Positions 14,046 through 59,252 of a stretch of 64,000 nt of DNA are shown here, in pieces. A program made the position numbers and the translations under genes. Where the stretch lies: assembly GCA_951406725.2 (NCBI GenBank), contig OX597815.1, positions 176,018,001 through 176,082,000 on the forward strand, read 5' to 3'. Under the pieces are notes generated by a model. It saw nothing but the letters and a program-made list of their open reading frames with translations. It ran no database searches and had not been told where the DNA came from. How positions within the stretch are numbered: position 1 is the first letter of the stretch; each line of letters begins with the position of its first letter. This DNA is from Octopus vulgaris (taxonomy: Eukaryota).

Positions 14046-14469
14046 CAGTAATCCCTCGATTATCGCGGGTGATACGTTCCAAAACCCCACGGCGATAGGT
14101 GAAAATCCGCAAAGTAGAAACAGTACTGTATATTTTCCGTTGTTTTTATAATTTGCATAAATTTATTATAGAAATGCAAACCGACACCACACACTCGCCT
14201 CCCGAATTCCGTTTTCCGCTCAGTATCTGCGATTCTTTGTTTACTCATCTATGGTACATCACGTATTGTCTTTTGATATATTTTAATTAATGTGTTATAT
14301 AGTGCAGTACTGTATTTTTATTTATTAATTTTTAGGCGTCAAAATGCTTATTTTACAACAGAAATAATTAAAGTTTAGAAAATATAAATGCCCATCGGCC
14401 GCAGAAAACTGCGTTGTACTGAGGGCACTGTAGGTGAACCGTGAACCACGATATGGCGAGTGGTTACTG
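14046..14469. mobile_element. Tigger/pogo-like non-autonomous DNA transposon (MITE)
   Basis: TIRs CAGTAATCCCTCGATTATCGCGG and the reverse complement CAGTAACCACTCGCCATATCGTGG. The TA target duplication is not preserved. Confidence 0.75.
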
Positions 14470-15212
14470 TGGCTCGAGAAACACGGGGCCGACCTGCCCG
14501 AGATGCGGTCAGAGCGACGAAACCGTTCTGCACGCACTCGTGTAGTGTCCAACTATTTCCGACCTGTGGGCTTATGTCGAACGACTGCCGTCACGTGTGG
14601 GACGAGTCGGTTTATCAGCCGAGTCTATCGTCAATGTCGTCACGCCTCCTTCCTTCAAACGGGAAGGAAGAGCTATTTTCATCATACTTGTGGCTATGGC
14701 GAAAGAATGTGTATGGTGGACACGTCTGAAAGGATTAGCGACAAACACTTTCCTCTCTGGTCAATCTCTCATCAATTTCTTCAAGTATCACTTGAAAAGG
14801 AAAGTGAGAGTAGAGAGGCAAGTTTTATCTAGCGAATGTTTCAAAAAAAGATGGGTGAATGTAGCAAGGATGGCACGTATGAATGACGAAGCCACCTTGA
14901 GTATATTCCTATGAACCCGGAAAAAATTAAAACAGAGTTACTTACTTGCAAATAAATGTGTTAGCATGTGACATTAATAACCGAGGTTACCGTGGTCTTT
15001 TCCGTAGGCTTTTCTTTCCACGGATAAACCTTATCTGTTTTACACTTTACATCATGACATTTCTGTGATACATGATCCGTATTGATCGTTTTTTTCCTTT
15101 TTATTATTCCTTTTTACGATCCCTTTTGATCGAAAACCTACCCCACTTTTTTTCTCCCCAAAAAGAAAAGCTCTACTTTGTAATTTCTCCCGTCTGTGTG
15201 GCTAATAAAGAA

Positions 15213-15214
<2 letters not shown>
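14470..15214 (+). mobile_element. Tx1/L1-clade LINE 3' fragment (zinc knuckle plus 3' UTR)
   Basis: Encodes CPRCGQSDETVLHALV*C (CCHC) and FFKYHLKRKVRVER..FKKRW, homologous to 29280-29640. Ends tgtgtggctaataaagaaa into (TG)n. Confidence 0.85.
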
Positions 15215-15544: not shown

Positions 15545-15738
15545 CTGGTTTCAAATTCTAGCAAGTTCGTGGCAGGGTGTAATGAGACCAGTACTCAACT
15601 GGTACTTATCTTATCAACCCTGGAAGGATGAAAGGCAAAGTCGACCTCGGCGGAATTTGAACTCAGAACGTGAAGACGGACGAAATGCTGCTAAGCCCTT
15701 TGCCCAGCGTGCTAACGATTCTACCAGCTCACTGCCTT
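15545..15738 (-). mobile_element. tRNA-derived SINE family A
   Basis: Reverse-strand A/B-box-like head (gagttcaaattcc) and body gtcgactttgcctttcatcctt. Confidence 0.85.
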
Positions 15739-15767
15739 AGTATTTGCTAATATTACTCTGATTGAGT

Positions 15768-15968
15768 AGGCGATCTATTGGCAGAATCATTAGCCCACCG
15801 GACAAAATGCTTAGCGGCATTTCGTCCGCCCTTATCTTTTGAGTTCAAATTCCGCCGAGGTCAACTTCACCTTTTATCCTTTTGGAGAAGATAAAATAAA
15901 TTTCAGTTGAGCACTGAGGTTGATGTAATCGACTCATCCCCTCCCCGAACTTGCTGGCCTTGTGCCAA
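15768..15968 (+). mobile_element. SINE family A, head-to-head with the previous copy
   Basis: tggcagaatcattagc ... gagttcaaattccgccgaggtc. Confidence 0.85.
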
Positions 15969-16529
15969 TATTAATAAATATTTAATATTGTATGAAGTGA
16001 TGTCTCGATGGAATATATTTACCCAACAGGTATTTGTTGAGTATTTCATTAGACTAGTTTATGGAAATTCCTTACTTCTGTTTGCTGATATATACGACAT
16101 TCTGTTATTTAAGACTAAGTTTATGTTAGTAAAAAGCAAAAAAAAAAAAAAAAAAAAATAAATGAGAGAATCTGATTCATGAGGCTGTCACTAAGTTTAA
16201 TGCAGTTCTTCATTTATTATTTGCTTTCAATTGATAATGTAGTTGTTAAATCTGATTTTTGGTCGGACAAATTCATAAATCGCCTTGCCGTCGTTCGTTA
16301 TGTACAGCACTTCATTTTGACATGATTATTGTACGTTTGATAATTTCTCGAACTTCATAGAATAAATTAAATTTCTCTAAGCCATCTGTGATGATTTATG
16401 GATCTGTGATGATTTATGCCTACATTCAAGATGCAAATATTAAAACATACTGCTTCCACGTGACTAAAGTATGAATGTTTGTCATTAAAATTAATAATTA
16501 GTTTTGAAATTAACATTCAGACGATGAAA

Positions 16530-17112
16530 AGGCGGCGAGCTGGCAGAAACCTTAGCACGCCGGGCGAAATGCGTAGCCGTATTTCGTCTGCCGTTACGTT
16601 TTGAGTTCAAATTCAGCTGAGGTCGACTTTGCCTTTCATCCTTTCGGGGTCAATAAATTAAGGACCAGTTACGCACTGAGGTCGATATAATCGACTTAAT
16701 CCGTTTGTCTGTCTTTGTTTGTCCCTTCTCTGCTTAGTCCCTTGTGGGTAGTAAAGAAATATGTATTTCATCTGCCGCTACGTTCTGAGTTCAAATTCCG
16801 CCGAGGTCGACTTTGCCTTTCATCCTTTCGGGGTCGATAAATTAAGTATCAGTTACGCACTGGGGTCGATGTAATCGACTTAATCCGTTTGTCAGTCTTT
16901 GTTTGTCCCCTCTGTGTTTAGCCCCTTGTGGGTAGTAAAGAAATAGGTATATCGTCTGTTTTTACGTTCTGAGTACAAATTCTGCCGAGGTCGACTTTGC
17001 CTTTCATCCTTTCGAGGTCGACAAATTAGGTATCAGTTGCGTACTGGGATCGATCTAATCGACTGGCCCCATTTCCCAAAATGTCGGGCACTGTGCCTAG
17101 AGTAGAAAGAAT
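16530..17112 (+). mobile_element. SINE family A triple nested array
   Basis: Units 16530-16760, 16761-16944 and 16945-17112. Junctions read taaagaaat-a(g/t)gtat. A diverged TSD-like pair acattcagacgatgaa / atattaagacaatgaa flanks the array. Confidence 0.9.
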
Positions 17113-17697
17113 ATTAAGACAATGAATAATAGTTGGAACTAGTGCTGGATATTCTAGAAACTACGTTAATTTAACACTAAATATTATACAATTAAAGAGT
17201 TTTTTTTCTGATAAGAATTGGTCCCCAACTTTAAACTTGTTTCTAAGGAACATATTTTACTGCACTTTGAATGTTAATACGTGTTTTACACGAAACAACT
17301 TATTCGCAATTATATACATCATCCAGAATGACGTAAATATTTAAATATATTTTCATACTTGCGACAATTGTGTTAAATTGTGCTGTAATCTCGGGCACGT
17401 ACACGCCATGGAAATCGAATAACTGGCCCTATGAGTCCTAAAACACAATAATATCCAGCGGCTGATGATGGTGATGATGACAATGATGATGATGATGTAT
17501 TTTCATATATTAAAATTGGAATCAAATTCTTCATACACAATATATGATGGGTTGTCATAAGCTAGACATACTAAGAAAATTATATCTTGTGACAGGTTAG
17601 GTAGTGTAAAACTGGAGAAGCACAGACATAAATACACATGTAAGTATATCAATAGATACATACATACGTACATACATACGTACGTACATACATAACC

Positions 17698-18340: not shown

Positions 18341-20333
18341 TTCTTGTAATTATGAAAAGCTGAAAGTCTTGTTTTTATATCATCAAAGAAAAGTAATTTT
18401 CAGTTTTTCTTATAAAAACGAGTCATTTTATTCATGACATCTACACACACACACACAATCCGATGAAATAGAAATGGAGAAATAACTTCATTTTAATCTC
18501 TGTTCTGTCTTTGAGACACAATACACATCTTTTTTTTTTGTTTTCTTTTAAAATCGCATTTTTGTTTACATTTCGTAATGAATTGCTTTCTGTACAATAT
18601 ATATATACATCGGTGCTTCTTTTTTTTCCATAGTTCTACAAAAGTACTTACCTTGTCAGCTTTCCAGCTAATAACTTGAAAATGGTTTTCTTTAGTCAAA
18701 ACTCAGTCATGCATTTTGCTGCAAAACAAGTGCAAGTATTACCATGGGGGTATATTTCGATGCTCATTTTGTCATCCACCCAATAACACAGAAGTTCGAT
18801 GATAGATCTCCTCGGAAAACCTTTGTTGGTAATGGCAATTTCTTGCATCAAACTCATTCAGTACACTTCTGCAGGTATCTATCTGTACGGCGTAAGCCAT
18901 TGCTTCTCCCGAGAACTTGCTGCTATTCAGCCGGCACCCTACTAGCCTCTATTTTACTTCTTTTTCAAAATTTTCATTAAAAAAAGTTATAGAAATCAGA
19001 AAATATAAAACTAAATAAATTTGAAATTAAAAGGATAGCTTATTATTATTATTATTACGCAGTTCAACCATATATATTGTATATTATTATTGTAAAAATT
19101 CCTTGCCTGCATTGTGAGAGCTGCAATGATATTGTGTTATTGCATTTGACAGTAGGTTTTCAAGCGAGAGTAATATATCTATAAAAGCAAAACGTGTATG
19201 GTTGTTACAAATAATATGAGTAATTTCGGAATGATAAATTTATGCAGGTATGTGCTTGTGTTTGCTTACACCTGCCTGTGTGCGTATGTGTGTGTGCATG
19301 AGTGTGTGTATGTGTGTGTGTGTACGCATCAGTAACGTTCAAACGTTGTCTTCAATGTTATTGCACACTTTTTATCACGGTGCAATTTTTCAGCTACTTC
19401 TGAGACATTTTCTACGCATGTTATACTGAATATCTGTGTTTCTGCTGTTTTCTTAAGCAGCGTTTATTTATCAGACATAGACCTGTTGATACCTTATGTT
19501 CCCCTCAAATTTCTGGAGTCTTGACTGTTATGTAATAAACTTTGATGTTTTTAGATCACATTCCTTACAATTTTTATATTTGATCTTTCAATTAATATCG
19601 CTATCCAATGGTATTTAATTAGGACACTGAATATACTTGAAATACATAAAAACTAAACCATTTCTACAACTTTGTCTTAGAACATTTATTCTAATTTCTA
19701 GCCTTACAAAACTGTCTCGGTTACACAGCACTGGGAAAAATAAGAATAACAGAAAATAACTATCTTTTGGACGCTTTCGTCACTCATGCATATAAGATTT
19801 TGTCTCATTTCACTAATTCTTATGGTATCAATTCACTTTTCTTCATTAATTTAAGCTGAATTGAGCATAGTAGTGCAAAGAGCAATGTTTAACCATCCGA
19901 TTTAATTAAAAGTAAATTTCCAATTCTAATTGGAGATAACTAACAAATTAAGTTAAATCGATTTTATTAAGATATATAATTAGAAAAGTTAATTCATTAC
20001 TGTTTTCCTGATGATTCAATTCTAAATTAGCACCAAAATGAATTAACCAATACTGCCAAATGATGCATGTGTGTATAAACCGAAATATGTCAGCGAGCAG
20101 GATTGTAAGCAGCTAGAAAGTACTACAGCAAACAATGTCAGCAGTGAATTCTAAATGATTTCGATCCCTACTTTCTCAATTTGCGTAAGAAAACGAAATT
20201 TCACAGGGTGTTGCGTGCACTTTTAATTTTTATACATTTCAGTGTCAGTTATCTGTGGCTTGGGACATTACATACAAGCGTTTACTTGGTTATTTCGTCT
20301 TCAATATTTGTTTCAATTTGGTATTTAGCTAAT

Positions 20334-20565
20334 AAGGCGGCGAGCTGGCAGAAACGTTAGCACGCCGAGCGAAATGCTTAGCGGTATTGCGTCTGCTGCT
20401 ACGTTCTGAGTTCAAATTCTGCCGAGGACGACTTTGCCTTTCATCCTTTCGGGGTCGATTAAATAAGTACCAGTTACGCACTGGGGTCGATATAATCGAC
20501 TTAATCGTGTGTCTGTCCTTGTTTGTCCTCTCTGTGTTTAGCACCTTGTGGGTAGTAAAGAAATA
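20334..20565 (+). mobile_element. Full-length SINE family A with Tx1-like tail and 14-bp TSD
   Basis: TSD GGTATTTAGCTAAT at 20320-20333 and 20566-20579. Confidence 0.93.
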
Positions 20566-20664
20566 GGTATTTAGCTAATCAAAAGCTGCTTGTCGAATCT
20601 CGGGGCATAAAGTTTCTTGACATACATAGATCGTTATATACATAAAGAAAACCATGGCACAGGT

Positions 20665-26662: not shown

Positions 26663-27996
26663 AAAAGTTTGAAAACACCACTATATTAGATAAATTTTTA
26701 TTTTCTTATGAATTTTACATGTTTCGGTTCTTGAAAAAACCAACCTTATCAAAAATATTATAAAAAGTAAAGTGTAATAGAAAAGTTCATAATTGTTTCT
26801 TACTGGTCTCAATAGAATCCATGTGGTGGTGTTTTGTTGGTAGAAGGTATAATAGCTATAAATTTCAAGTTGAGTGTAGTAAAGAAGTTCATTATTGTTT
26901 CTTGCTGGTATCAACAGGAACCACGTGCTTGTTTTTTAGCTTCCTTGTGTTCGAATGACCCGCGCCTGAAATGGTAGCAGCAGTAGTGATTGTTGGTCGT
27001 AGTTGTAGTAACCGTGGTGGTGGTTGGGGTTGCAGCAGTTAAGCTGTGGCCGTAGCAGCAGCAGCAGTAGTGGAGGACTGTTGATCGTAGCAGCAATAGT
27101 AGTGACCACGGTGGTTGTAGTAGCAGTGATAGCGGAAGCAGTCGTAGTGATCGTGGTGGTTGCGGTAGAATTTCATTTTTCTTTTCAGAAGACCAATATT
27201 TTGTTTTAATATTCCTGGCCCAGGGTGTTCAAACTTGGTCTAAATTTTTTAATGAAATAAAGTTCTTTATTTTGGCGTTGAGTGAAGGTTACGCTGTCAC
27301 TGAATTTGTAAAGTGGGCAAGTTGTAAATTTCGGATTTTTATTTGAAGCACATCTATCTATGTGTCCGCTGACTGGTATTTTCCGGTATTCAGGGTTTCT
27401 AATTTGGGATTTATGCACCGCCATCCTTTTACGTAAGCTGTTTTTTGTATGGCCTATATACTGCCTATTGCAACCTGCGCATGTTAAGACGTAAATTAAG
27501 TTTTCTGATGCACAGGTGAAGTTTGTTCTGATGGTAAACTGATGGCCTTGTTCTAATGTGAATTCTGAACCTTCTACCAAGATGACACAGATTCCGCAGT
27601 TGGGCTTTCCACATTTTCTAACTGCTGGTTTTGTGGTTGATGTTGAGTGCAGTTTAGCTTGGGTTAAAATCTTTTTCAAGGATTTTGGTTGCCGTTTACT
27701 TTTAATGATGGTGTGTGTTTCGAGGATCCGGTTCATCTTTGGGTCTCCCTTTAGTAGGGCTGTGCTTTGTAGTATGGTGCTGAAGGCCTCATTGTTAAGT
27801 GGGTTGTGTGTAGAGATGTAGGAAAGGATTTTTAATTTTTCTTTCTTTTTTGGTTTTGTTTGTCTCAGGTCTTCTATACTTAATTTAAGTGCTCGTTGGA
27901 TTGCACTGTCTATTAGGGGCTGTAGATAATTTCTATTTATGAGTGTAGTTCTAAGTTCCTGGAGACGTGTGTGTCGGGTGTTTGTGTCTGATATTA
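26658..27996 (-). mobile_element. 5'-truncated Penelope-like element (Cys-rich linker, GIY-YIG) with 3' UTR ending at (TA)n
   Basis: Open frame to the stop at 27206 contains CGKPNCGIC and LIYVLTCAGCNRQYIGHT..LRKRMAVH..PSLN. A degenerate hammerhead lies in the 3' end. Confidence 0.9.
26712..26756 (-). ncRNA. Degenerate hammerhead in the PLE 3' terminal repeat
   Basis: ATTT TTGATAA GGTT..AACC GAAA CATG TA AAAT. Two core substitutions; palindromic stem III ACATGT. Confidence 0.55.
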
Positions 27997-28096
27997 TGGA
28001 CAGGGCACGACGGTCAGGCGGTAGGTAATGACCGATGCAATAAACACATTGGCCACCTCTGCCCTCCCTTTCAGGGATAGCCACCGCCAAGACCAA
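27206..28096 (-). CDS. C-terminal part of a PLE ORF (RT thumb/linker plus GIY-YIG endonuclease); the first ~33 codons are out-of-frame Tx1 sequence
   Basis: GIY-YIG motif LIY..YIG, with R, H, E and N residues in the expected order. The frame is uninterrupted from 27996 to 27206. Confidence 0.7.
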   Translation of the reverse strand: MVLAVAIPEREGRGGQCVYCIGHYLPPDRRALSIISDTNTRHTRLQELRTTLINRNYLQPLIDSAIQRALKLSIEDLRQTKPKKKEKLKILSYISTHNPLNNEAFSTILQSTALLKGDPKMNRILETHTIIKSKRQPKSLKKILTQAKLHSTSTTKPAVRKCGKPNCGICVILVEGSEFTLEQGHQFTIRTNFTCASENLIYVLTCAGCNRQYIGHTKNSLRKRMAVHKSQIRNPEYRKIPVSGHIDRCASNKNPKFTTCPLYKFSDSVTFTQRQNKELYFIKKFRPSLNTLGQEY

Positions 28097-28170
28097 GTCT
28101 TGACTATTGCAGCCACACTGCTCGAAACCTCCGTCCAGTTCTTCTCTATCTGGAGGCCTGGTCCAAACAA
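27997..28170 (-). repeat. 174-bp inverted duplicate of Tx1 segment 28541-28714
   Basis: By eye, 4 mismatches in 174 bp. Confidence 0.92.
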
Positions 28171-28315
28171 CTGGCCGCTCCCCACAAATTTCGGGCCTTC
28201 TGCATCAGACGCTGAGTTCGTCAAGGATGTCTGCTCTCATCACTTTTGTATGTGGTGGCTCTTGAGCACGTACTCCCGAAAGTTAAGTGACATCTCAAGA
28301 GAACCAGTTTTAGAG

Positions 28316-28951
28316 GAGTTTGTTTCGGCTTACGCGGACGATATCACTATCAGTGTTACCACAGTAGCACGCCTACGTGGAGTGGGTAAGTCTATTCAGG
28401 TTTACGAGACGGTGGCAGGAACAAAGATCAACCGGGAAAAGTCGGTCGGCTTGCACCTCAGCACCTGGGTTAGCAAGTCGATGCCTTCAGGCAGCGTTGT
28501 TGGGCGATGGACTGAGGGACCGGTTAAATTGATGGGAGTCTTGTTTGGACCAGGCCTCCAGATAGAGAAGAACTGGACGGAGGTTTCGAGCAGTGTGGCT
28601 GCAATAGTCAAGACCTGGTCTTGGCGGTGGCTATCCCTGAAAGGGAGGGCAGAGGTGGCCAATCTGTTTATTGCATCGGTCATTACTTACCGCCTGACCG
28701 TCGTGTCCTGTCCAGATTCGTGGGTGATCAGGTTGGAGAGGAAGCTCTTTCGCTTTTTGTGGAAGGGCAAGTCGCTACTTGTGAAACGTTCTATCTGTTG
28801 TCAGAAGCCGTTAAAAGGAGGTTTAGGGATGCCTTGGTTAATGATGCGCAGGCATGCTTTGAAGTTGAGGCATCTCTGGATTCTCCTGGATGGTGAACGG
28901 GTGTGGTCTCCGCTAGCCAGACAAATGTTCCCCAAGTTCAAAAGTTTTTGA
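28316..28951 (+). pseudogene. Tx1-clade reverse transcriptase fragment
   Basis: Open frame containing YADD and the thumb region, within ORF 28028-28951. Confidence 0.8.
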
Positions 28952-29826
28952 GAAAAGGAAGCCTAGTGTTTTCGTAGACCGAGGTCGAGTAAATGGCATA
29001 TGGAGTATCATAAGGTCCTCCTGCTATTCCGGCGCTTGGGCAACGCCAGCGGTGGGAGTTCTACACGCTTTTTATATAGTGGGTTGGTAGAGTCTGAATG
29101 TGACGATACCATGGGAGCGACTCTAGGTCTCGGGTATATTCAACTTGACAGCCTCTTCTACCGTACATACGGGTTGAGAACGTTGGACAATTTCCAAAAG
29201 TCCTTGACCTGACAATGTTATAGGGGCGCCTTGCCCGTTTGGGATAAACTCGCAAGACATGGAAAGTCTCACTCTCCGTCCTGTCCAAGATGCGGGTGGG
29301 TAGGGAAACCGTCCCTCACGCTATTGTTCAGTGCCCGGAGATATCTGAAATGTGGGTTGAACACCAGTTGCCCGGCGAAGGAAGAGTACAACTGTCGACT
29401 GGGTCAATTATAAAAATTGACCCAGAAGACATGTTAACAAATGACGGTAAGAATTGTTTTCTCACTGTTATTGCAATAGCAAGAGGCAGAATGGAAGACT
29501 AGGATAAAACGGATCAAGACGGGTAACTTTATCTCCGGCCACGAGTTAAGATCGTTTTCCACTTTTCACTTGAAAAGGAAAGTGTGGCTGGAGAAGAGAT
29601 GCCTGTCGGAGAGTGTGTTCAAAAAAAGATGGAAGCATGTTGCACGAGTGCTGTGTGTGCACGGAACCATGTGAATAGGCTATAGAAGAAAAACAAGAGA
29701 TGAAAGAAGTACCAGTGATAGATCGGGGCTTATGGGGTCGGAGCGTGGCCTCATCATCACTACATTTGTATCATATTTGTATTGTGTATATCATTCGATT
29801 CTTATATATTTTATATGATTTTTATT

Positions 29827-30180
29827 CTTTTACTTGTTTCAGTCATTTGACTGCGGCCATGCTGGAGCACCACCTTTAGACGAATCAAATCGACCCCAGG
29901 ACTTAATCTTTGTAAGCCTAGTACTTATTCTATCGGTCTCTTTTGCCGAACCGCTAAGTTTCGGGGACAAACACAGATACACAACATATATGTGTATATA
30001 TATATATATATATATACGCCGGGCTTCTTTCAGTTTGTGCTTACCAAATCCACTCACAAGGCTTTGGTCGGCCCGAGGCTATAGTAGAAGACACTTGCCC
30101 AAGGTGCCACGCAGTGGGACTGAACCCAGAACCATGTGGTTGGTAAGCAAATTACTTACCACACAGCCACTCCTGCGCCT
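29827..30180 (-). mobile_element. SINE family B inserted in the Tx1 3' UTR
   Basis: Near full-length; head aggcgcaggagtggctgtgtggtaag on the minus strand. Confidence 0.9.
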
Positions 30181-30290
30181 ATATTCATATTTATGTATAT
30201 TCAATTTATGTAATATCATAACGTGTTCCTGACCCCAATCAGCTGTTTTGTCCCATTCTGTGTGTAGCCTCTGTGGGTAATAAAGAAATT

Positions 30291-30457
30291 GGTATTTCGT
30301 CCGTCTTTACGTTCTGAGTTCAAATTCCGCTGAGGTTGACTTTGACTTTCATCCTTTCGGGGTCGATAAATTAAGTACCAGTTGCTAGGGTCGATCTAAT
30401 CGACTGGCATACTCTCCCAAAATTTCGGGCCTTGTGCCTAGAGTAGAAAAGATTATT
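30291..30457 (+). mobile_element. SINE family A, 3' portion starting exactly at GGTAT (apparent Tx1 target)
   Basis: ggtatttcgtccgtc...gagttcaaattcc...gccttgtgcctagagtagaaaagattatt. Confidence 0.88.
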
Positions 30458-32139: not shown

Positions 32140-33013
32140 TTTTCATTAGCATCTTCTTTCAATTGTTTCCATTTCTTGCCGAGTGTCTTCTTGACACCTA
32201 GGGCAGATAAACGCATTGTATACATTGGTAGGGCATTAATATAAACACACCAGATTGTTCGTTTACAAAGTCATGTGATGGAGAAAAAGCGGAAGACAGA
32301 GAGAAAAATAAAAAATAAAAAAAGTAAAATAAAATGAAGCGGGGGTGGTGGAGAAAATTCAAAACGACAATACGTGTGACGTAGCAGTTAAGACAATCTT
32401 TTGCACTTCCACTTCCTGCATGAAAAGTAAGCTAAGGATCATTCTTAAATAATTTTCAGTTCCTTTTTTGATCATTCCAAGTGCTCCGATATATACATAT
32501 TGGGAAGTCCCAGAGAATCGTTACATTTTCTCCCTCAGTTACAGCCTCAGGGTGGCGCTTGTACCATTTGTCAGCAGTTTTGATTTTATAATGCCGACAC
32601 ACTATCCAAAGTAGATATTGGCCAGCTCCGTTATGTCTTGATTTGCACTCAACAGGTGCTAAAACTTTACACCCAGAGATTAGGTGGTCCACTGTTTCTA
32701 TCTCATCGTTGCAGTATCGGCACTTTGGGTCTACACCATTTTTCATCACATTGTCTTGATAGTTCCGTGTCAATAAGCTCTGATTTGGGGCAGCCAAGAT
32801 ACAACCTTCACGCTCTGCCTTTAACCCCGAGCTCTGTAGCCACTGATGGATGTGCTTCTGGTCTACATCAGCTTGTTTGCTACGAGCCGCATATTTGTCA
32901 TGCAGAGGTTTTTGTTCCCACCCATCAGCCAATTGTTCAAACGCATTTTGCTTTGCTATTGATTTCACCTTCTTTGCAACTACAGTTGCTGCACTTCCAT
33001 CATGCTGTTCAAC
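32140..33013 (-). mobile_element. R4/Dong-type LINE fragment (CCHC knuckle, RHN, WDF, C-terminus, 3' UTR), internally deleted
   Basis: ORF 32456-32968 has CRYCNDEIETVDHLISGC..RHN..ILWDFPI. It then jumps to IGALGMIKKG..VQKIVLTATSHVL. The 5' end abuts (AAT)n. Confidence 0.88.
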
Positions 33014-34926: not shown

Positions 34927-35604
34927 GCACTTTATTTTTGGATTAATAAGACAACCTATAGTATCATGTCAAGAGATCTTCACAATTATTCAAGCGTGCC
35001 ACATGGAAATGTTGGTACTCACCTCCATTTTGGTCGAGAACACCCCCCCCACACACACACACGCACACACACACACACACACACAAACAAACACACAAAA
35101 TTCGTCCAAAAGTGAAGCAGTAAGTAAGTTTAATACGCTCCGGAATTTTCAATGACACTTCAATTTTCTTAAAAGCTGAATAGAATAAATAAATAAAATT
35201 ATGTATGTATGAAACGAAGGAAAATAGGAACTAACTAAATCCAGGCAAATACCTTAATATATTCTATATAAATAAAACCCCGACAAGAAAGAATTGTCCA
35301 GTGAAAATTAGAGAAATTCGTATAGGGTTATTAATTTTTTTTTTTGTGATAGGTGAAAATTGTAATCCTAAGTGAAATTCCTATTAGAAACCGGAAAGAA
35401 TATTAATAAAGACGTGAAGATAACTGAGCAAATTCCGTCCGTCTCTCATTGAGGTTTTTTGCATGCTTAATCAATTCATCAGCTGATCCATTATTCTACC
35501 AAATTGACAGAGCTATTGTCTACTAAACCATTCTTTTCAATCGTGTTTGTTAGATATTATGTATGCAAAGAAAGTATGTGGAGGAAAGTGGTATAAGCTA
35601 TGCA

Positions 35605-36021
35605 AAGGCGGCGAGCTGGCAGAAACGTTAGCACGCCAAGCGAAATGCTTAGCAGTATTTCGTCTGCCGTTGCGTTCTGAGTTCAAATTCCGCCGAGGTC
35701 GACTTTGCCTTTCATCCTTTCGGGGTCGATAAATTAAGGACCAGTTACGCATTGCGGTCGATGTAATCGACTTAATACCTATGTCTGTCCTTGTTTGTCT
35801 CTTCTCTATTTAGCCCCTTGTGAGTAGTAAAGAAATACGTATTTCGTCCGCCGCTACGTTCTGAGTTTAAATTCCGCCGAGGTCAGCTTTGCCTTTCATC
35901 CTTTCGGGGTCAATTAAATAAGTACCAGTTATGCACTGGGGTCGGTATAATCGACTTAATCCGTTTGTCTGTCCTTGTTTGTCCTCTCTGTGTTTAGCCC
36001 CTTGTGGGTAGTAAAGAAATA
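35605..36021 (+). mobile_element. SINE family A dimer with Tx1-like tails and 12-bp TSD
   Basis: TSD GGTATAAGCTAT at 35590-35601 and 36022-36033. Internal junction taaagaaat-acgtatttcgtc. Confidence 0.92.
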
Positions 36022-37129
36022 GGTATAAGCTATCAGACCCAACTCCTTAATTTATTACCCTGTCTCTCTTCTCGAGTCGCTACAGGTAGATTTTCTTTTT
36101 CTTTTCTATCCGATGCTTTTACTTTAATAATGTCTATTAGACTGCAACAGTTTTGTGCAAAAATAAAATTGTATCTTAATTTCAGAAGTTTTTAAGTGCA
36201 AAATAATTTATGATAGAAAATAGAGTGTACTGTCGAAAAGAATACACCATAAAACATTGTCTATGAAGACTAGTAAGTAATTGCTGGTTTTCAAATTCTA
36301 CAAATTCACATTAATAAATACAATATATCCACAAAGGAATTCAAGTTATGAAGCTTTAGAAGAATTCCACCCTGAAAAAATTTTGTCGCGAGAATAAAAG
36401 ACGTTAACTTACTGGTGAAAATTACTCATAAAGTTGCAGTGAACTTCATGATTTTTCGGAAAGGCAAGCCTCGTACGTAATTGTTGGGTTAAAAGAAAAA
36501 TGGGCAAAGAGAATCGTTACAATATGACCCTGCATCTAAACAATTAACCCTAATAATACAGGTTAATTTAAAGAGGGTTTAATGCACTGTTATGCTTTGG
36601 TCCATATGAGGAAATATTCTTAATGATAAGATTAATAAAGAAACTGAATTTATCTATTTTGTATCAGAGTATGTTAAGATTTTTGTTTCGAAAACTTAGG
36701 AAGGTTTTGGTTTATAAATGAGAGCAACACATCAATGGTTCTTTATGTTTATTTAAGTTAGACAGCGTATAGCGTCGCTTTGCGTTATAGATTGTTATTA
36801 GAATTCCTTCTAGTATATTGTAGAACGCTACCTATTACAAACCATTCTATAGAGCATTATATTATTCTCTTTGATGCTCTGAATAACAATATTTACAGAT
36901 ACTTTTTTTTTTCTCTTATATTTGAAGAAGTGTGATTGGGAATTCCTGATTTAATTTTTCTAAAACAAGTACCCATATAATAACACACATTACAGAACAT
37001 TTATTAACTATATGTAAGCAATTGTTCGCTGCGTAGCAATTTCCAAAGTTCCTGAAATTATATCATTCATTTAGTCTATTGATATATGATTTTCCCATTT
37101 GTTGTATTACCGTTCATATTATCACCCGT

Positions 37130-40894: not shown

Positions 40895-41280
40895 AAGCAG
40901 ATTCGTTAGCGAGATGGACAAAATGCTTAACGGCGGGCGAAATGCTTTGCGGTATTTCGTCTGCCGTTACGTTCTGAGTTCAAATTCCGCCGAGGTCGAC
41001 TTTGCCTTTCCTCCTTTCGGGGTCGATAAATTAAGTACCAGTTACGTACTGGGATCGATGTAATCGACTTAATACCTTTGTCTGTCCTTGTTTGTCCACT
41101 CTATGTTTAGCCCTTTGTAGGCAATAAAGAAATAGGTATTTAGTCTGACTTTCGATTTTGAATTCAAATTGCGACGGAATCGACTTTGCCTTTCATCCAT
41201 TCGTGGGTTGATAAAATAACTTCCAGTTGAGCACTGGTGTCGATGTAGTCAACTTTCGCACTTCTCCGAAAGTTGAAACC
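40895..41280 (+). mobile_element. SINE family A: younger Tx1-tailed copy nested in an older copy
   Basis: Inner copy ends aataaagaaat-aggtatttagtc, resuming the older SINE at GGTAT. Confidence 0.85.
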
Positions 41281-41574: not shown

Positions 41575-41792
41575 TAATCGTTTCTACTAAAAGCCCAATG
41601 CCTGAAATTTTGGGAGAGGGGGTCTAGTCGATTACGTTGGCTCCATTGTTTCACTGGTACTTAATTTATAGACCCCCAAAAGATGAAAGGTAAAGTCGAC
41701 CTTGGCGGAATTTGAACTCAGAACGTAACGGCAGACGAAATACGGCTGCGCATTTCGCCCGGCGTGCCAACGTTTCTGCCGGCTCACCGTCT
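41575..41792 (-). mobile_element. SINE family A
   Basis: Reverse-complement head and body, (ATT)n-type tail. Confidence 0.85.
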
Positions 41793-42084
41793 TAATAATA
41801 ATAACAACAACAACTCTTAGGAACGATTGAAATGTTGAACACAAAAAAAACTGCATCCACATAAGGCTTGGTGATTTGTGCTGATGATGTACAAGGAAAT
41901 AATGGTAACACCCATTCTAGGAATACCAGACTTACAAGTTATTCTTTCTATTATTGACTTGAAAGAAGGAAAAACTATACATCAATAGGTACATATGTGT
42001 GTGTGTGCTTGTGCGTATATGTGTGTACGCTTGCACACGTGTGTGTGTGTGCCTGTGTGTATATATGTGTGTGTATGCGTGCGC

Positions 42085-43485: not shown

Positions 43486-43532
<47 letters not shown>

Positions 43533-43534
43533 CT

Positions 43535-43764
43535 GTTTTACTCTTTTACTTGTTTCAGCCATTTGACTGTGGCCATGCTGGACCACCGCCTTTAGTCGAA
43601 CAAATCGACCCCAGGACTTATTCTTTGTAAGCCTAGTACTTATTCTATCGTTCTCTTTGGCTGAACCGCTAAGTTACGGGGACCTAAACACACCAGCATT
43701 GGTTGTCAAGCAATGTTGGGAAGACAAACACAGACACACAAACATATACACACATACACACACG

Positions 43765-44988: not shown

Positions 44989-46211
44989 TAAGATCGGCTC
45001 ACATGAAATTATTTTAAATGGGTTTCTTATGAGTCATCTATAAAGGATATTTAATGATTTTCTATGTATTATGCTTGTGTTTACTCTTAACTCTTTTTCT
45101 TACTATTATTCAAAATTGCTGCCCACCACTCTTATGACAATGTTGACAAATGAACACTACTGAGTGATTTTCTTATACGAATACAAGTTGCGTCACTCTG
45201 CCACCAAAGCTCTACGAAACATCATGCGCGCTTTTGGTAACGATTCTGTTGACATTAGAACTGTTCAGAGATGGTTCCAAAGATTTCGATCAGGAAATGA
45301 AAGCCTTAAAAATGAACCAAAAGGGAGACGAAAATCAGTTATTTGGCATGATGAATTGAATACTTTGGTTAAACGAAATCCGAGAACAACGGTACGAAAA
45401 CTCGGATCACAGCTCCAGACATCTCCTGCAACTGCTTCTCGACACTTGAAAAGATTGGAAAAGTCACAAAGATGGATAGGTTTGTTCCTCATCTACTTAG
45501 TGAGATTCAAAGAAACAGACGCTTTACAGTATGTTCCGTGTTGATTTCTCGGCTGGAAAGAGAACCAGTTTTACATCGACTCATTACGTGTGACGAGAAA
45601 TGGATACTCTTTGATAACAGCAAAAGTACAGGACAGTGGTCAGATGCAGGAGAGTTATCAAAACACTACACAAAACCACCACCATCATTGCAACCTTAAA
45701 AAGTTGATGGTCACTGTATGGTGGTCAACAAAGGGGGTTATTCATTTTTGTAACAAGGAAAAACTGTAACAGTAACATACTATTGACAGAAAAATGCTTG
45801 TATGCATGAAAAATTGACAAAGAAGTAACCCAGATTAGTGAATAGAGATGGCCAAATTTTGCTTCACACTTCTCAAACTACGGTCCACACGTTGGAAAAC
45901 CGGAATTATGGAATTTTGGCACATCCTCCTTATTCTCCTGCTATTTTTCCTACTGATTATCACATATTTAAACACTTCAAGCTTTCTATACGCATAAATA
46001 AAGAAGTAATTGAAGCATTCAAACAGTTTATCAGAGTAAAAGATGACAAATTATTTAAAGATGGAATATATGCCTTAGAGGAACGTTGGATGAAGGTTAT
46101 AAATGAACAAGAATCATATTTTGATGAAGTAAATGGATATTCTAAAACAATTTTAAAAACAATTTTAATGTTTCCTTTTTTAAATGCAACATTTCATGTG
46201 AGACAACCTAA
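44989..46211 (+). mobile_element. Near full-length decayed mariner transposon
   Basis: TIRs taagatcggctcacatgaaat and the reverse complement ttaggttgtctcacatgaaat, in a TA context. Transposase motifs RTVQRWFQRFRSG, FVPHLL, ITCDEKW and HPPYSPAIFPTDYH, with frameshifts. Confidence 0.93.
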
Positions 46212-47575: not shown

Positions 47576-48310
47576 ACTCTTTACTCTTTTACACTTTTAC
47601 TTGTTTCAGTCATTTGACTGCGGCCATGCTGGAGCACCGCCTTTAGTCGAGCAAAATCGACCCCGGGACTTATTCTTTGTAAGCCCAGTACTTATTCTAT
47701 CGGTCACTTTTGCCGAACCGCTAAGTGACGGGGACGTAAACACACCAGCATCGGTTGTCAAGCAATGCTAGGGGGACAAACACAGATACACAAACGCACA
47801 CACACATACATATATATACATATATACGACAGGCTTCTTTCAGTTTCCGTCTACCAAATCCACTCACAAGGCATTGGTCGGCCCGGGGCTATAGCAGAAG
47901 ACACTTGCCCAAGATGCCACGTAGTGGGACTGAACCCGGAACCATGTGGTTGGTTAGCAAGCTACTTACCACACATATATATTATTTTATTCGTTTCAGT
48001 AATTTGACTGCGTCTATCCTGGAGCACCGACTTTAGTCGAACAAATTCTATCGGTCTATTTTGTCGAACTGTTAAGTTACGGGGACATAAACACATCAAC
48101 ATCAACTGGCAAGTGATGGTGGGGTAACAAACAGAGACACATACATATACGACGGGCTTTTTTCAGTTTCCGTCTACAAAATCCATTCACAAGTCTTTGG
48201 TTGGCTTGAGGCTATAGTAGAAAACATTTCCTAAGGTGGCACGCAGTGGGACTGAACCTGGAACTATGTGGTTGGTATGCAAGCTACTTAGCACATAGCC
48301 ACTTCTGTGC
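47576..48310 (-). mobile_element. Two adjacent SINE family B copies (47576-47973, 47985-48310)
   Basis: The first is close to the other well-preserved copies; the second is more diverged. Confidence 0.88.
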
Positions 48311-50739: not shown

Positions 50740-51070
50740 GTGTGTGTGTGAGTGTGCGTGTGTGTGTATGTGTGTGTATGGTGGACAATGGCTAGTAGCA
50801 AGCAGTAGTAGAATTAAAGGAGTGGTGTGGGGGTACCCTAGCAGGTCAGAAAGGCAGATCAGAAGCAGGGAGGTATGTGTGTGTGCGTGTGTATGTATGT
50901 GTGAGTGTGTGCGTGTATGTATGTGTGTGTATGGTAGACAATGGCTAGTAGCGGGCAGTAGTAGAATTAAAGGAGTGGTGTGGGGGTACCCTAGCAAGTC
51001 GGAAAGGTAGATCAGAAACAGGGAGGTATGTGTGTGTGCGTGTGTATGTATGTGTGAGTGTGTGCGTGTG
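50740..51070. repeat. Tandem duplication, period 153 bp
   Basis: atggt(g/a)gacaatggctagtagc at 50778 and 50931. Confidence 0.9.
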
Positions 51071-52279: not shown

Positions 52280-52680
52280 CTCTTTACTCTTTTACTTATT
52301 TCAGTCATGTGACTGTTGCCATGCTGGAGCACCGCCTTTTTTAGTAGTGCAGATCGACCGCAGGACTTTTCTTTGTAAGCCTAGTACTTATTCTATCGGT
52401 CTCTTTTGCCGAACCGCTAAGTTACGGGGACGTAAACACACCAGCATCGGTTGTCAAGCGAAACACAGACACACAAACATGTACACACACATACATATAT
52501 ATATATATACATATATACGTGGACTTCTTTCAGCTTCCATCTACCAAATCCACCCACAAGGCTTTGGTCGGCCCGAGGCTATAGTAGAAGACACTTGTCC
52601 AAGGTGCCACGCAGTGGGAATGAACCCGGAACCATGTGGCTTGTTAGCAAGCTACTTACCACACAGCCACTCCGATGCCT
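52280..52680 (-). mobile_element. SINE family B
   Basis: Near full-length. Confidence 0.9.
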
Positions 52681-52847
52681 ATATTTTAATTGTATAAATA
52701 TAACATGAAAAATATTAATATCATTTAGTCATCTATATCTCATGCTTGTTGTATAAACATTAACAATTGACCAAGTATTTATTAGATGTCTTAGGGAGGT
52801 GCTGTGTTAGAAACACAGTAAGTATTAAAGGAACAGAAAATTATTCT

Positions 52848-53674: not shown

Positions 53675-54650
53675 TAATGGCTTCAAATCTTGGCAAAAGG
53701 CCAGCACTTCTGGGGAAGTGGGGCAAGTCGATTACATCGACCCAAGCGCTCAACTGGTATTTATGTTATCGACCTTGGAAGGATGAAAAACAGTCGACCG
53801 CAGCGGGATTTGAACTCTGAACGTAATGACGGAAGAAATGCCGCTAATTATTTCGTCCTGCGTGCTAATGATTCTGTCAACTCAAACTCGTTTATAATAA
53901 TAGTAATAATAATCCTATCTACTATAGGCACAACAATTTGGATTTTGTGGGGAGGGGGACAATCATATCGTCCCCAGTACTCGACTGGTGCTTAATTTAT
54001 CGATCCCGAAAGGATGAGTGCCCAGTCGAACTGTAACAAAAGGTTTGCCTCCTTGGCACAGCCAGAATAATCAGGAAAGAATTAGATAGTTGAAAAGTAC
54101 CGATAGCATGGTACTGTAGACTGCAGGTAGCAAGTCCACTACGCATGCAAGCCTCCAGGAGTTCTAGCAAAACCTGTGATAAAAAGAAAATAATAATAAT
54201 AATAACAACAATAATCCTATTATAGTCACAAGGCTTAACATATTGGGGATGGGGACAAGTCGACTACATCGACTCCAATGTGTATCTGGTACTTAATTTA
54301 TCGACCCCGAAAGGATGAAAGTAAAGTCGGTAGAATTTGAACTAAGAATGTAAAGACAGACGAAATACCGCTAAGCATTTCGCCCAGCGTGCTAACGATT
54401 CTGCCAGCTCGCCGACTTTAATAATAATAATAATAATAATAATAATCCTTTCTACTATAGGCACAAGGCCTGAAATTTGGTGGGATGGGACTCTTCGATT
54501 AGATCGACTCCAGTACGTAATAATACTTAATTTATCCACCCCGAAAGGATGAAAGGAAAAGTCGACCTCGACGGAATTAGAACTCAAAACGTAGCAACGG
54601 GCGAAGCATTTTGCCCGGCGTGCTAACGATTCTGCCAGCTCACCGCCTTT
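53675..54650 (-). mobile_element. Head-to-tail cluster of about 4 SINE family A copies with (ATT)n tails
   Basis: Copies are separated mainly by (AAT)n runs. Minus-strand tail gccttgtgcctatagtagaaaggattattatt. Confidence 0.85.
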
Positions 54651-58412: not shown

Positions 58413-58616
58413 ATGTGTGTATGTATACAAACATAATTATATACCAATATATCATGATTACGTCAGAATAAACAATATCGCTGCACCATAATGATGCTCC
58501 AGATTCCATGCCACTGCATGCCATGCTTGGCAACTGCCTTCTACCATAGCCTCAAGTTTAGTAAAGCTTTGTGTGCATTTGAAAATGTGTGTCTTATCTT
58601 ATGAATGTATACATGT

Positions 58617-59040
58617 AGGCGTGGATTTGTGGTAGGAAGTTTGCTTCCCAACCACATGGTTCCAGGTTCAGTCCCACTGCGTGGCACCTTAGGCAAGTGT
58701 CTTCTACTATAGCCTCTGGCTGACCAAAGCATTGTGAGTGGATTTCGTAGACGGAAACTGAAAGTAGCCCGTCGCTTGCGCGCGCGTGTGTGTGTGTTGG
58801 GGAATTATATATATATGTATGTATGTGTGTGTGTTCTTTGAGTCTGTTTTTGTACCACACACTGCTTTACAACCGGTGTTGGTGGGTTTACGCCCCCATA
58901 ATTTAGAGGTTCGGTAAAAGAGATAGAATAAGTACTAGGCTTAAAATACAAATAGTTTTTCGGTCGATCTATTCAACTAAACTTTTTCAAGGTGGTGTCT
59001 CAGCATGGCCGTAGTCTAATGACTGAAACAAGTAAAATAA
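58617..59040 (+). mobile_element. SINE family B (only plus-strand copy)
   Basis: ggttcagtcccactgcgtggcaccttaggcaagt ... cagcatggccgtagtctaatgactgaaacaagtaaaa. Confidence 0.87.
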
Positions 59041-59252
59041 AAAATAGAAATATGCCTATGTTTGCATGTATAAAAATGTGTATTAGTAGAGAACGGAGAC
59101 TAAATTTCTGAAACGCTTTAAACATTGTTACAGTGTTATTACTAATATGTAATCGTAGTTTTCAGATTAGCCGAGAACATTGTGGATTTGTGAAACCCAG
59201 ATCCTAGAGACTGGTGTTGAGCGAGTTTGTTACATTATTAAATGCGTCAACA

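Follow-up and report, generated by a model that had tools for sequence, protein, structure and literature searches.

The 64-kb window analysed here, a single stretch of Octopus vulgaris DNA, contains a short, non-coding, dispersed, high-copy SINE, of which 16 units could be aligned within the window, together with fragments of two LINEs of the L1/Tx1 group. The SINE has one head and body and two tails, which part after position 167: tail type 1, here called L1/Tx1-type, ends in TAAAGAAATA, and tail type 2 ends in TTA repeats. Among the usual features of a SINE, a 3' tail common to a LINE and target-site duplications of 12 and 14 bp were present. The head holds motifs that are A-box-like and B-box-like by comparison with the consensus; ARAGORN and Rfam each returned 0 matches for it, and its predicted fold had z -0.98, with nothing unusual in any head or tail fold (z -1.06 to 0.82). 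The middle of the SINE has a by-eye likeness to oyster CORE SINEs, a superfamily marked by a central CORE domain of ~60 bp. Table 1 sets out the features.

Table 1. Coordinates of the SINE arrays (A1 to A3), other SINE copies and LINE fragments in the window
Feature	Position	Strand	Remarks
Second L1/Tx1-group LINE, 3' fragment	14430-15213	+	68% to P0002 over 139 aa
A1 left target-site duplication, 10 bp	16519-16528	+	One CpG-type change vs. right copy
A1 head, SINE positions 1-49	16529-16577	+	A-box-like motif; young type
A1 unit 1	16578-16761	+	Target, B box, body, L1/Tx1-type tail
A1 unit 2	16762-16945	+	Target, B box, body, L1/Tx1-type tail
A1 unit 3, rest of host SINE	16946-17116	+	TTA-type tail
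A1 right target-site duplication	17117-17126	+
Solo L1/Tx1-type-tailed SINE	20334-20565	+	14-bp duplications 20320-20333 and 20566-20579, GGTAT-starting
Decayed 5'-truncated L1/Tx1-group LINE	about 28180-30290	+	RT C-half, C-terminal domain, 3' UTR
Headless TTA-tailed SINE	30291-30457	+	Begins at GGTAT directly 3' of LINE tail
A2 left target-site duplication, 12 bp	35590-35601	+	GGTAT at start
A2 whole dimer	35605-36021	+	Both units L1/Tx1-type tailed
A2 head	35605-35653	+
A2 unit 1	35654-35837	+
A2 unit 2	35838-36021	+
A2 right target-site duplication	36022-36033	+	GGTAT at start
A3 old head remnant	40897-40929	+	~SINE positions 15-47
A3 young 5'-truncated copy	40930-41134	+	Head positions 29-49 plus complete unit, L1/Tx1-type tail
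A3 remainder of old host SINE	41135-41280	+	From GGTAT on
Solo TTA-tailed SINE	41575-41793	-	CCGTAT head variant, present in A1 too
TTA-tailed copies inside TTA repeats	53685-54650	-	Two head to tail with full heads

Layout of the arrays

An earlier note on this DNA had reported three SINE arrays, and all three were recovered with a period of 184 bp by Tandem Repeats Finder, BLAST and alignment. Tandem Repeats Finder called 2.6 copies at 16579-17064 and 2.0 copies at 35655-36026; A3 (40951-41134 and 41135-41255) lay under its threshold and was clear by BLAST and alignment. The span given for A2 stands, while A1 had to be corrected to 16529-17116 and the start of A3 to 40897, where the head is doubled. 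The build is a single head (SINE positions 1-49) followed by units that begin at position 50, with A3 differing in its doubled head: positions 29-47 are present twice, the old form first and the young form second. As the earlier note had described, the junctions resume at the SINE's internal GGTAT. All four array junctions restart at position 50 and read TAAAGAAAT-A-(T/G/C/G)GTAT; in A1 and A3 the final unit has the second tail type, with its TTA repeats. Position 50 sits between the A-box-like and B-box-like motifs, placing the target inside the tRNA-like head.

The whole of A1 is flanked by a host-type duplication of 10 bp with one mismatch; among 1129 random flank pairs, 9 did as well or better. 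No target-site duplication was found around A3. The first run of four T occurs only at 36091 in the case of A2, with no T4 terminator inside the dimer.

The earlier note had also proposed that with each event an old A box acquires a new B box and tail, which could rejuvenate Pol III units. The old A box is not supported in A1 and A2, the heads of which are young, differing from the young solo copy at 3/49 and 1/49 sites, respectively, and from each other at 4/49. An old 5'-truncated head was kept in A3 only. Because the A1 head is young-like and the A1 host unit resembles older copies, heads may be replaced; the sequence of the A1 head makes it seem to have arrived with the incoming copy.

GGTAT as the landing site

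NGTAT directly follows all seven L1/Tx1-type tails in the window, five of which lie in a SINE and two in non-SINE DNA. The latter two insertions, namely the solo copy and dimer A2, are flanked by duplications of 14 and 12 bp, respectively, that start with GGTAT on both sides, indicating that GGTAT derives from the target. Together with the GGTAT in the head region, these duplications outside SINEs bear out the proposal that the SINE contains its own target. Of the 128,000 strand positions (both strands of the window), 106 carry GGTAT, and 11 of these fall within SINE copies. Five out of seven tails would land in SINEs by chance with p 2e-4, or 1.5e-3 for four out of six when two are counted as one event. 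This excess of SINEs among the landings suggests that the preference probably extends beyond five bases, or that arrays also move whole.

A probable LINE partner of the L1/Tx1 group

The tail had been labelled Tx1 in the earlier note. The window does contain an L1/Tx1-group LINE with the same tail and target, but no match named Tx1 was found among the relatives of this LINE, and we therefore call the group L1/Tx1. The open reading frame at 28025-28951 encodes the C-terminal half of the reverse transcriptase (RVT_1, E 5e-5, below the Pfam curated cut-off), the best solved relative of which is human L1 ORF2p (E 3e-7, PDB). Other relatives, which point to an octopod host, include an Argonauta hians protein (56%) and full-length proteins of ~1150 aa (39-45% identity) with endonuclease, RT and zf-RVT domains. 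The marks of the L1/Tx1 group, an AP-type endonuclease, an RT and a C-terminal zinc domain, are thus present in the family, the window copy itself showing the RT. Target-sequence preference, a Tx1 trait, is present as well, in the NGTAT behind 7/7 tails and in the duplications that begin with GGTAT.

Over its last 50 nt the LINE matches the SINE tail at 80-86%, and one SINE subfamily likely borrowed its tail from such a LINE. The LINE tail ends on a SINE's internal GGTAT, and the TTA-tailed headless SINE starts at once (30291), so that an element of autonomous type occupies the SINE site as well. Upstream of the LINE, neither a host SINE head nor a duplication was found. Being decayed and having a tail 80-86% alike, this copy is taken as a relative of the putative driver. 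The second LINE (14.4-15.2 kb) agrees with the LINE ending near 30.3 kb (the 30.3-kb LINE) at 18 of the final 20 positions of the tail and then continues into (TG)n. Since this nearly identical tail end is followed by (TG)n, GGTAT lies outside the LINE tail, and the sequence suggests that the second LINE represents a sister family with a microsatellite target.

Several other features lie at the 5' end of the 30.3-kb LINE. The segment 27997-28170 is an inverted copy (97.7%) of LINE positions 28541-28714; it overlaps the direct part, which excludes a plain 5' inversion. Forty-five bases at 28165-28210 resemble the TTA-type SINE tail, but they overlap RT coding sequence and may be a chance likeness. 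A Penelope-like fragment with a GIY-YIG domain (27206-27996, minus strand; Pfam E 4e-7) adjoins the LINE 5' end and may have removed the SINE head that is missing upstream of the LINE.

Junctions and SINE copies in public sequence data

Contigs of four public DNA runs (X2, X4, X13 and X14) were aligned to the solo SINE at 80% likeness, and 149,000-375,000 contigs per run matched one SINE copy. Four of the 15 joints listed, from a total of at least 984, led from the tail end into the SINE interior. These included the best-supported joint, which was carried by at least 104 contigs in X2, at least 117 in X4, at least 3 in X13 and at least 2 in X14. The register of this main joint was read from the spacer examples listed; among the eight listed rows starting at the tail, five were in exact position-50 register, one was off by one base and two did not fit. 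Contig depth, which is not a copy number, gave tail-to-body ratios of 0.43 for organisms A and B against 0.05-0.06 for E, hinting at a burst confined to one lineage. The flanks of the solo copy had one common depth figure in each of the organism E runs (45.7 and 10.5), unlike X2 and X4. This is a hint of one contig lacking the SINE, an empty site; the joints listed included no such joint or spanning piece, and we do not count it as evidence.

The same runs held two other arrangements. Joints from 20501/20503 to 20333/20334, found in all four, correspond to whole TTA-tailed copies placed head to tail; this second kind of array is also present in the window, in TTA repeats at 54215-54650 (minus strand), and might have a TAA-targeting partner such as Dong/R4. 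Joints from 20333/20334 to 20400 on opposite strands, likewise present in each run (11-25 contigs per joint), correspond to head-to-head inverted SINE pairs, one of which lies in the window at 15589-15934.

A 21-mer from the middle of the SINE was found exactly in SINE-like repeats at 121 metagenome loci, where heads and tails differ, and an estimated ~9000 metagenome stretches, in other organisms, contain it. The SINE-middle motif scan found the present head or tail at 0/121 metagenome loci and no match in genome contigs, and tail-motif scans gave one unrelated phage match and none in metagenome and genome contigs. The SINE-middle motifs were absent from the searched supplements of PMC4824008 and PMC4758252.

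Insertion or duplication

The earlier note had suggested comparing unit divergences within arrays, and array neighbours proved no more alike than dispersed copies. Differences within arrays were 16/184 and 25/184, the latter in A2, the most divergent pair among the six units compared, and the other 13 pairs, between loci, differed at 14-23/184. The young A3 unit differs from its neighbour at 26/119 body sites and from the dispersed unit 2 of A1 at 17/184. In AU tests, a clade of the two A2 units was rejected (p 0.035, full units), as was a clade of the three A1 units (p 0.012, body), and there was no rejection for A1 units 1 and 2 (p 0.41) or for A3 and A2 by body only (p 0.19 each). In the unit tree, from which the truncated unit m30823 was left out and in which no branch was starred, A2 unit 2 grouped with the solo copy (support 90/88; columns 79, 82 and 149 in common), with A1 unit 2 outside that group. 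The first units of A1 and A2 have minority sites in common (columns 87G, 150T and 154C), and a C/T-GTAT junction follows each. The long arrays and within-locus likeness of SINE-derived satellites were not seen; these arrays have two to three unhomogenised units. Neither plain tandem duplication nor a scatter of junction positions, the two patterns named in the earlier note as speaking against nesting, was observed (4/4 window junctions at position 50).

From these sequence patterns, which comprise five nested junctions in one 64-kb window, we conclude that copies of a tRNA-like SINE were probably stacked by targeted nested insertion at the internal GGTAT, likely via the endonuclease, with its target preference, and the reverse transcriptase that belong to an L1/Tx1-group LINE. 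The older hosts, the mixed tail types and the doubled A3 head agree with the earlier proposal that Tx1-tailed copies jumped into pre-existing SINEs. Its wider claim, that arrays grow by repeated insertion, is supported as far as nested targeted insertion is concerned; growth in place and the movement of whole arrays may both contribute.

A rival account, of a type put forward for SINE satellites and bivalve SINE arrays, is that the units were duplicated locally in tandem, or arose when the internal GGTAT recombined unequally with the one in the right-hand duplication. Every tailed solo copy has GGTAT both at position 50 and behind its tail, so that a 184-bp duplication would resemble A2; moreover, the A1 unit 1 and unit 2 clade was not rejected. 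However, this process has no source for the last units of other tail and age in A1 and A3, is unable to yield the doubled A3 head or a LINE at the same site, and is at odds with the A2 units being the most divergent pair. We regard it as very unlikely in general, and it is refuted for A3, for the junction between A1 units 2 and 3 and for the LINE case. A different reading of the NGTAT after all seven tails is that GGTAT is the element's own 3' end and that the arrays are template-switch chimeras from reverse transcription, in which case the RNA could be the source of the C/T variant that follows two related units. Since the left duplications of both non-SINE insertions start with GGTAT, and none follows the almost identical tail end of the sister LINE, we find this scarcely credible.

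It is possible, although we do not favour it, that dimer or trimer masters arose once and then spread by read-through transcription and retrotransposition as a whole, most arrays not having grown in place. Such masters are compatible with nested insertion, which would then explain only the masters themselves. A single duplication surrounds the whole A2 dimer, which has no T4 inside, and another single one surrounds the A1 trimer, as this account would predict, and the sites and C/T junction common to the first units of A1 and A2 point the same way. Nevertheless, the second units differ in type, only that of A2 grouping with the solo copy, and the heads of A1 and A2 differ at the four sites noted above. 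In A3 and in the LINE case the hosts are older and not the same, and the spacer letters in public contigs correspond to varied downstream units.

Proposed mechanism

The steps that we propose for targeted nested insertion rest on established target-primed reverse transcription. The LINE protein would bind the tail, nick the target before GGTAT and copy the RNA, and a second nick 12-14 bases on would produce the target-site duplication. With a SINE as the target, the cDNA would be identical in sequence to the upstream end of the target, allowing the 5' junction to anneal in register. An in-register join would drop or replace one head and leave no visible duplication, giving a head, (184 bp)n and the host remainder. 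Each event would rebuild the GGTAT site twice, before both units, so the array would remain a target. A3 may represent a 5' join out of register that left one and a half heads. The lack of an internal T4 terminator in A2 makes transcription of the whole array possible.

A more far-reaching scheme, which we consider doubtful, is a self-targeting loop. Here the SINE, by borrowing the LINE tail, would have turned copies of itself into the chief sites of insertion; nested read-through RNA (tail plus GGTAT-SINE) would pair with the target and steer insertions, tails would be swapped between two LINE partners, multi-unit masters would be movable by either LINE, and the outcome would be a lineage-specific burst. 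R2, an autonomous element with a restriction-like endonuclease and a 28S rDNA target, offers a partial parallel. R2 is co-transcribed with its target, and target-like RNA sequence can strengthen target-specific integration (work cited in the available part of PMC4494074). The octopus SINE can be likened to R2 by the target-like sequence that its RNA would carry; R2, unlike the SINE, is autonomous. The system would make it simple to ask whether an AP-endonuclease LINE is guided by target-like RNA.

Comparison with known systems

Tx1 LINEs with target specificity have been described before, as have their SINEs and arrays of SINEs. The available part of Kojima 2015 (PMC4494074) describes a common target preference of crocodilian SINEU-3 and Tx1-Mar LINEs, for which the target is the repeat Mariner-N4_AMi, and ascribes tandem SINE copies to sequential insertion. 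The octopus case is similar in that a SINE and an L1/Tx1-type LINE have a common target in another repeat copy. According to the same part of that paper, SINEU elements have snRNA heads, a target outside the SINE and whole copies stacked with a duplication between them, whereas the octopus SINE has its target within its own tRNA-like head, headless seamless units and a tail in common with a LINE.

SINE arrays of the bivalve Scapharca broughtonii have the form TSD1-(SINE)n-TSD1, for which the authors suggest unequal recombination (PMC11481361, available part). As presented there, they resemble the octopus arrays in having one full head, internal units cut at the same head position and one outer duplication. 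Their internal units also have truncated tails, in contrast to the octopus arrays, in which tails are complete and subfamilies and tail types are mixed. Squamate SINE-derived satellites (sSat) are long arrays formed mainly by duplication and homogenisation, as described in the accessible part of PMC10702118; they too are tandem repeats of partial SINEs with leading and trailing monomers, and they differ from the short, unhomogenised octopus arrays of two to three units with insertion signatures.

Octopus tRNA-derived SINEs of the CORE superfamily, OR1 and OR2, are named in PMC4824008 and PMC4758252. By description, they are like the present SINE in their tRNA-like head, conserved middle and exchangeable tails, and the available parts of the two papers make no mention of self-nesting. 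Recently active L1-Tx1 and SINE families have been reported in O. vulgaris, with SINEs making up 11.6% of the genome, and no arrays of this build are described in the part of that source available (PMC13282606). Other related literature, available in part, includes PMC8967140 and PMC4640811. By title and start of abstract, the literature that was searched yielded no SINE with its own target between the A and B boxes; it took in few subscription journals and neither Repbase nor the paper of 1994 on octopus SINEs, and such an element may be recorded there.

SINE arrays are usually explained by unequal recombination and SINE tail exchange by template switching. Targeted insertion into an element's own promoter region would be a third route, visible at the DNA level, and would both create seamless arrays and join one family's head to another's tail. 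Because such arrays resemble tandem duplications, this would be relevant for annotating and dating octopus SINEs.

Other elements in the window

A second abundant SINE family is present at 29820-30189, 47587-48310, 52283-52685, 43518-43692 and 58600-59044, the first of these (about 29820-30189) interrupting the 3' UTR of the 30.3-kb LINE. The window also contains Mariner-like transposase remnants, recognised by eye (45164-46200, plus strand), and a zf-RVT LINE fragment (32456-33013, minus strand; Pfam E 4e-5), as well as tandem repeats of 153 bp with 93% identity (50741-51069).
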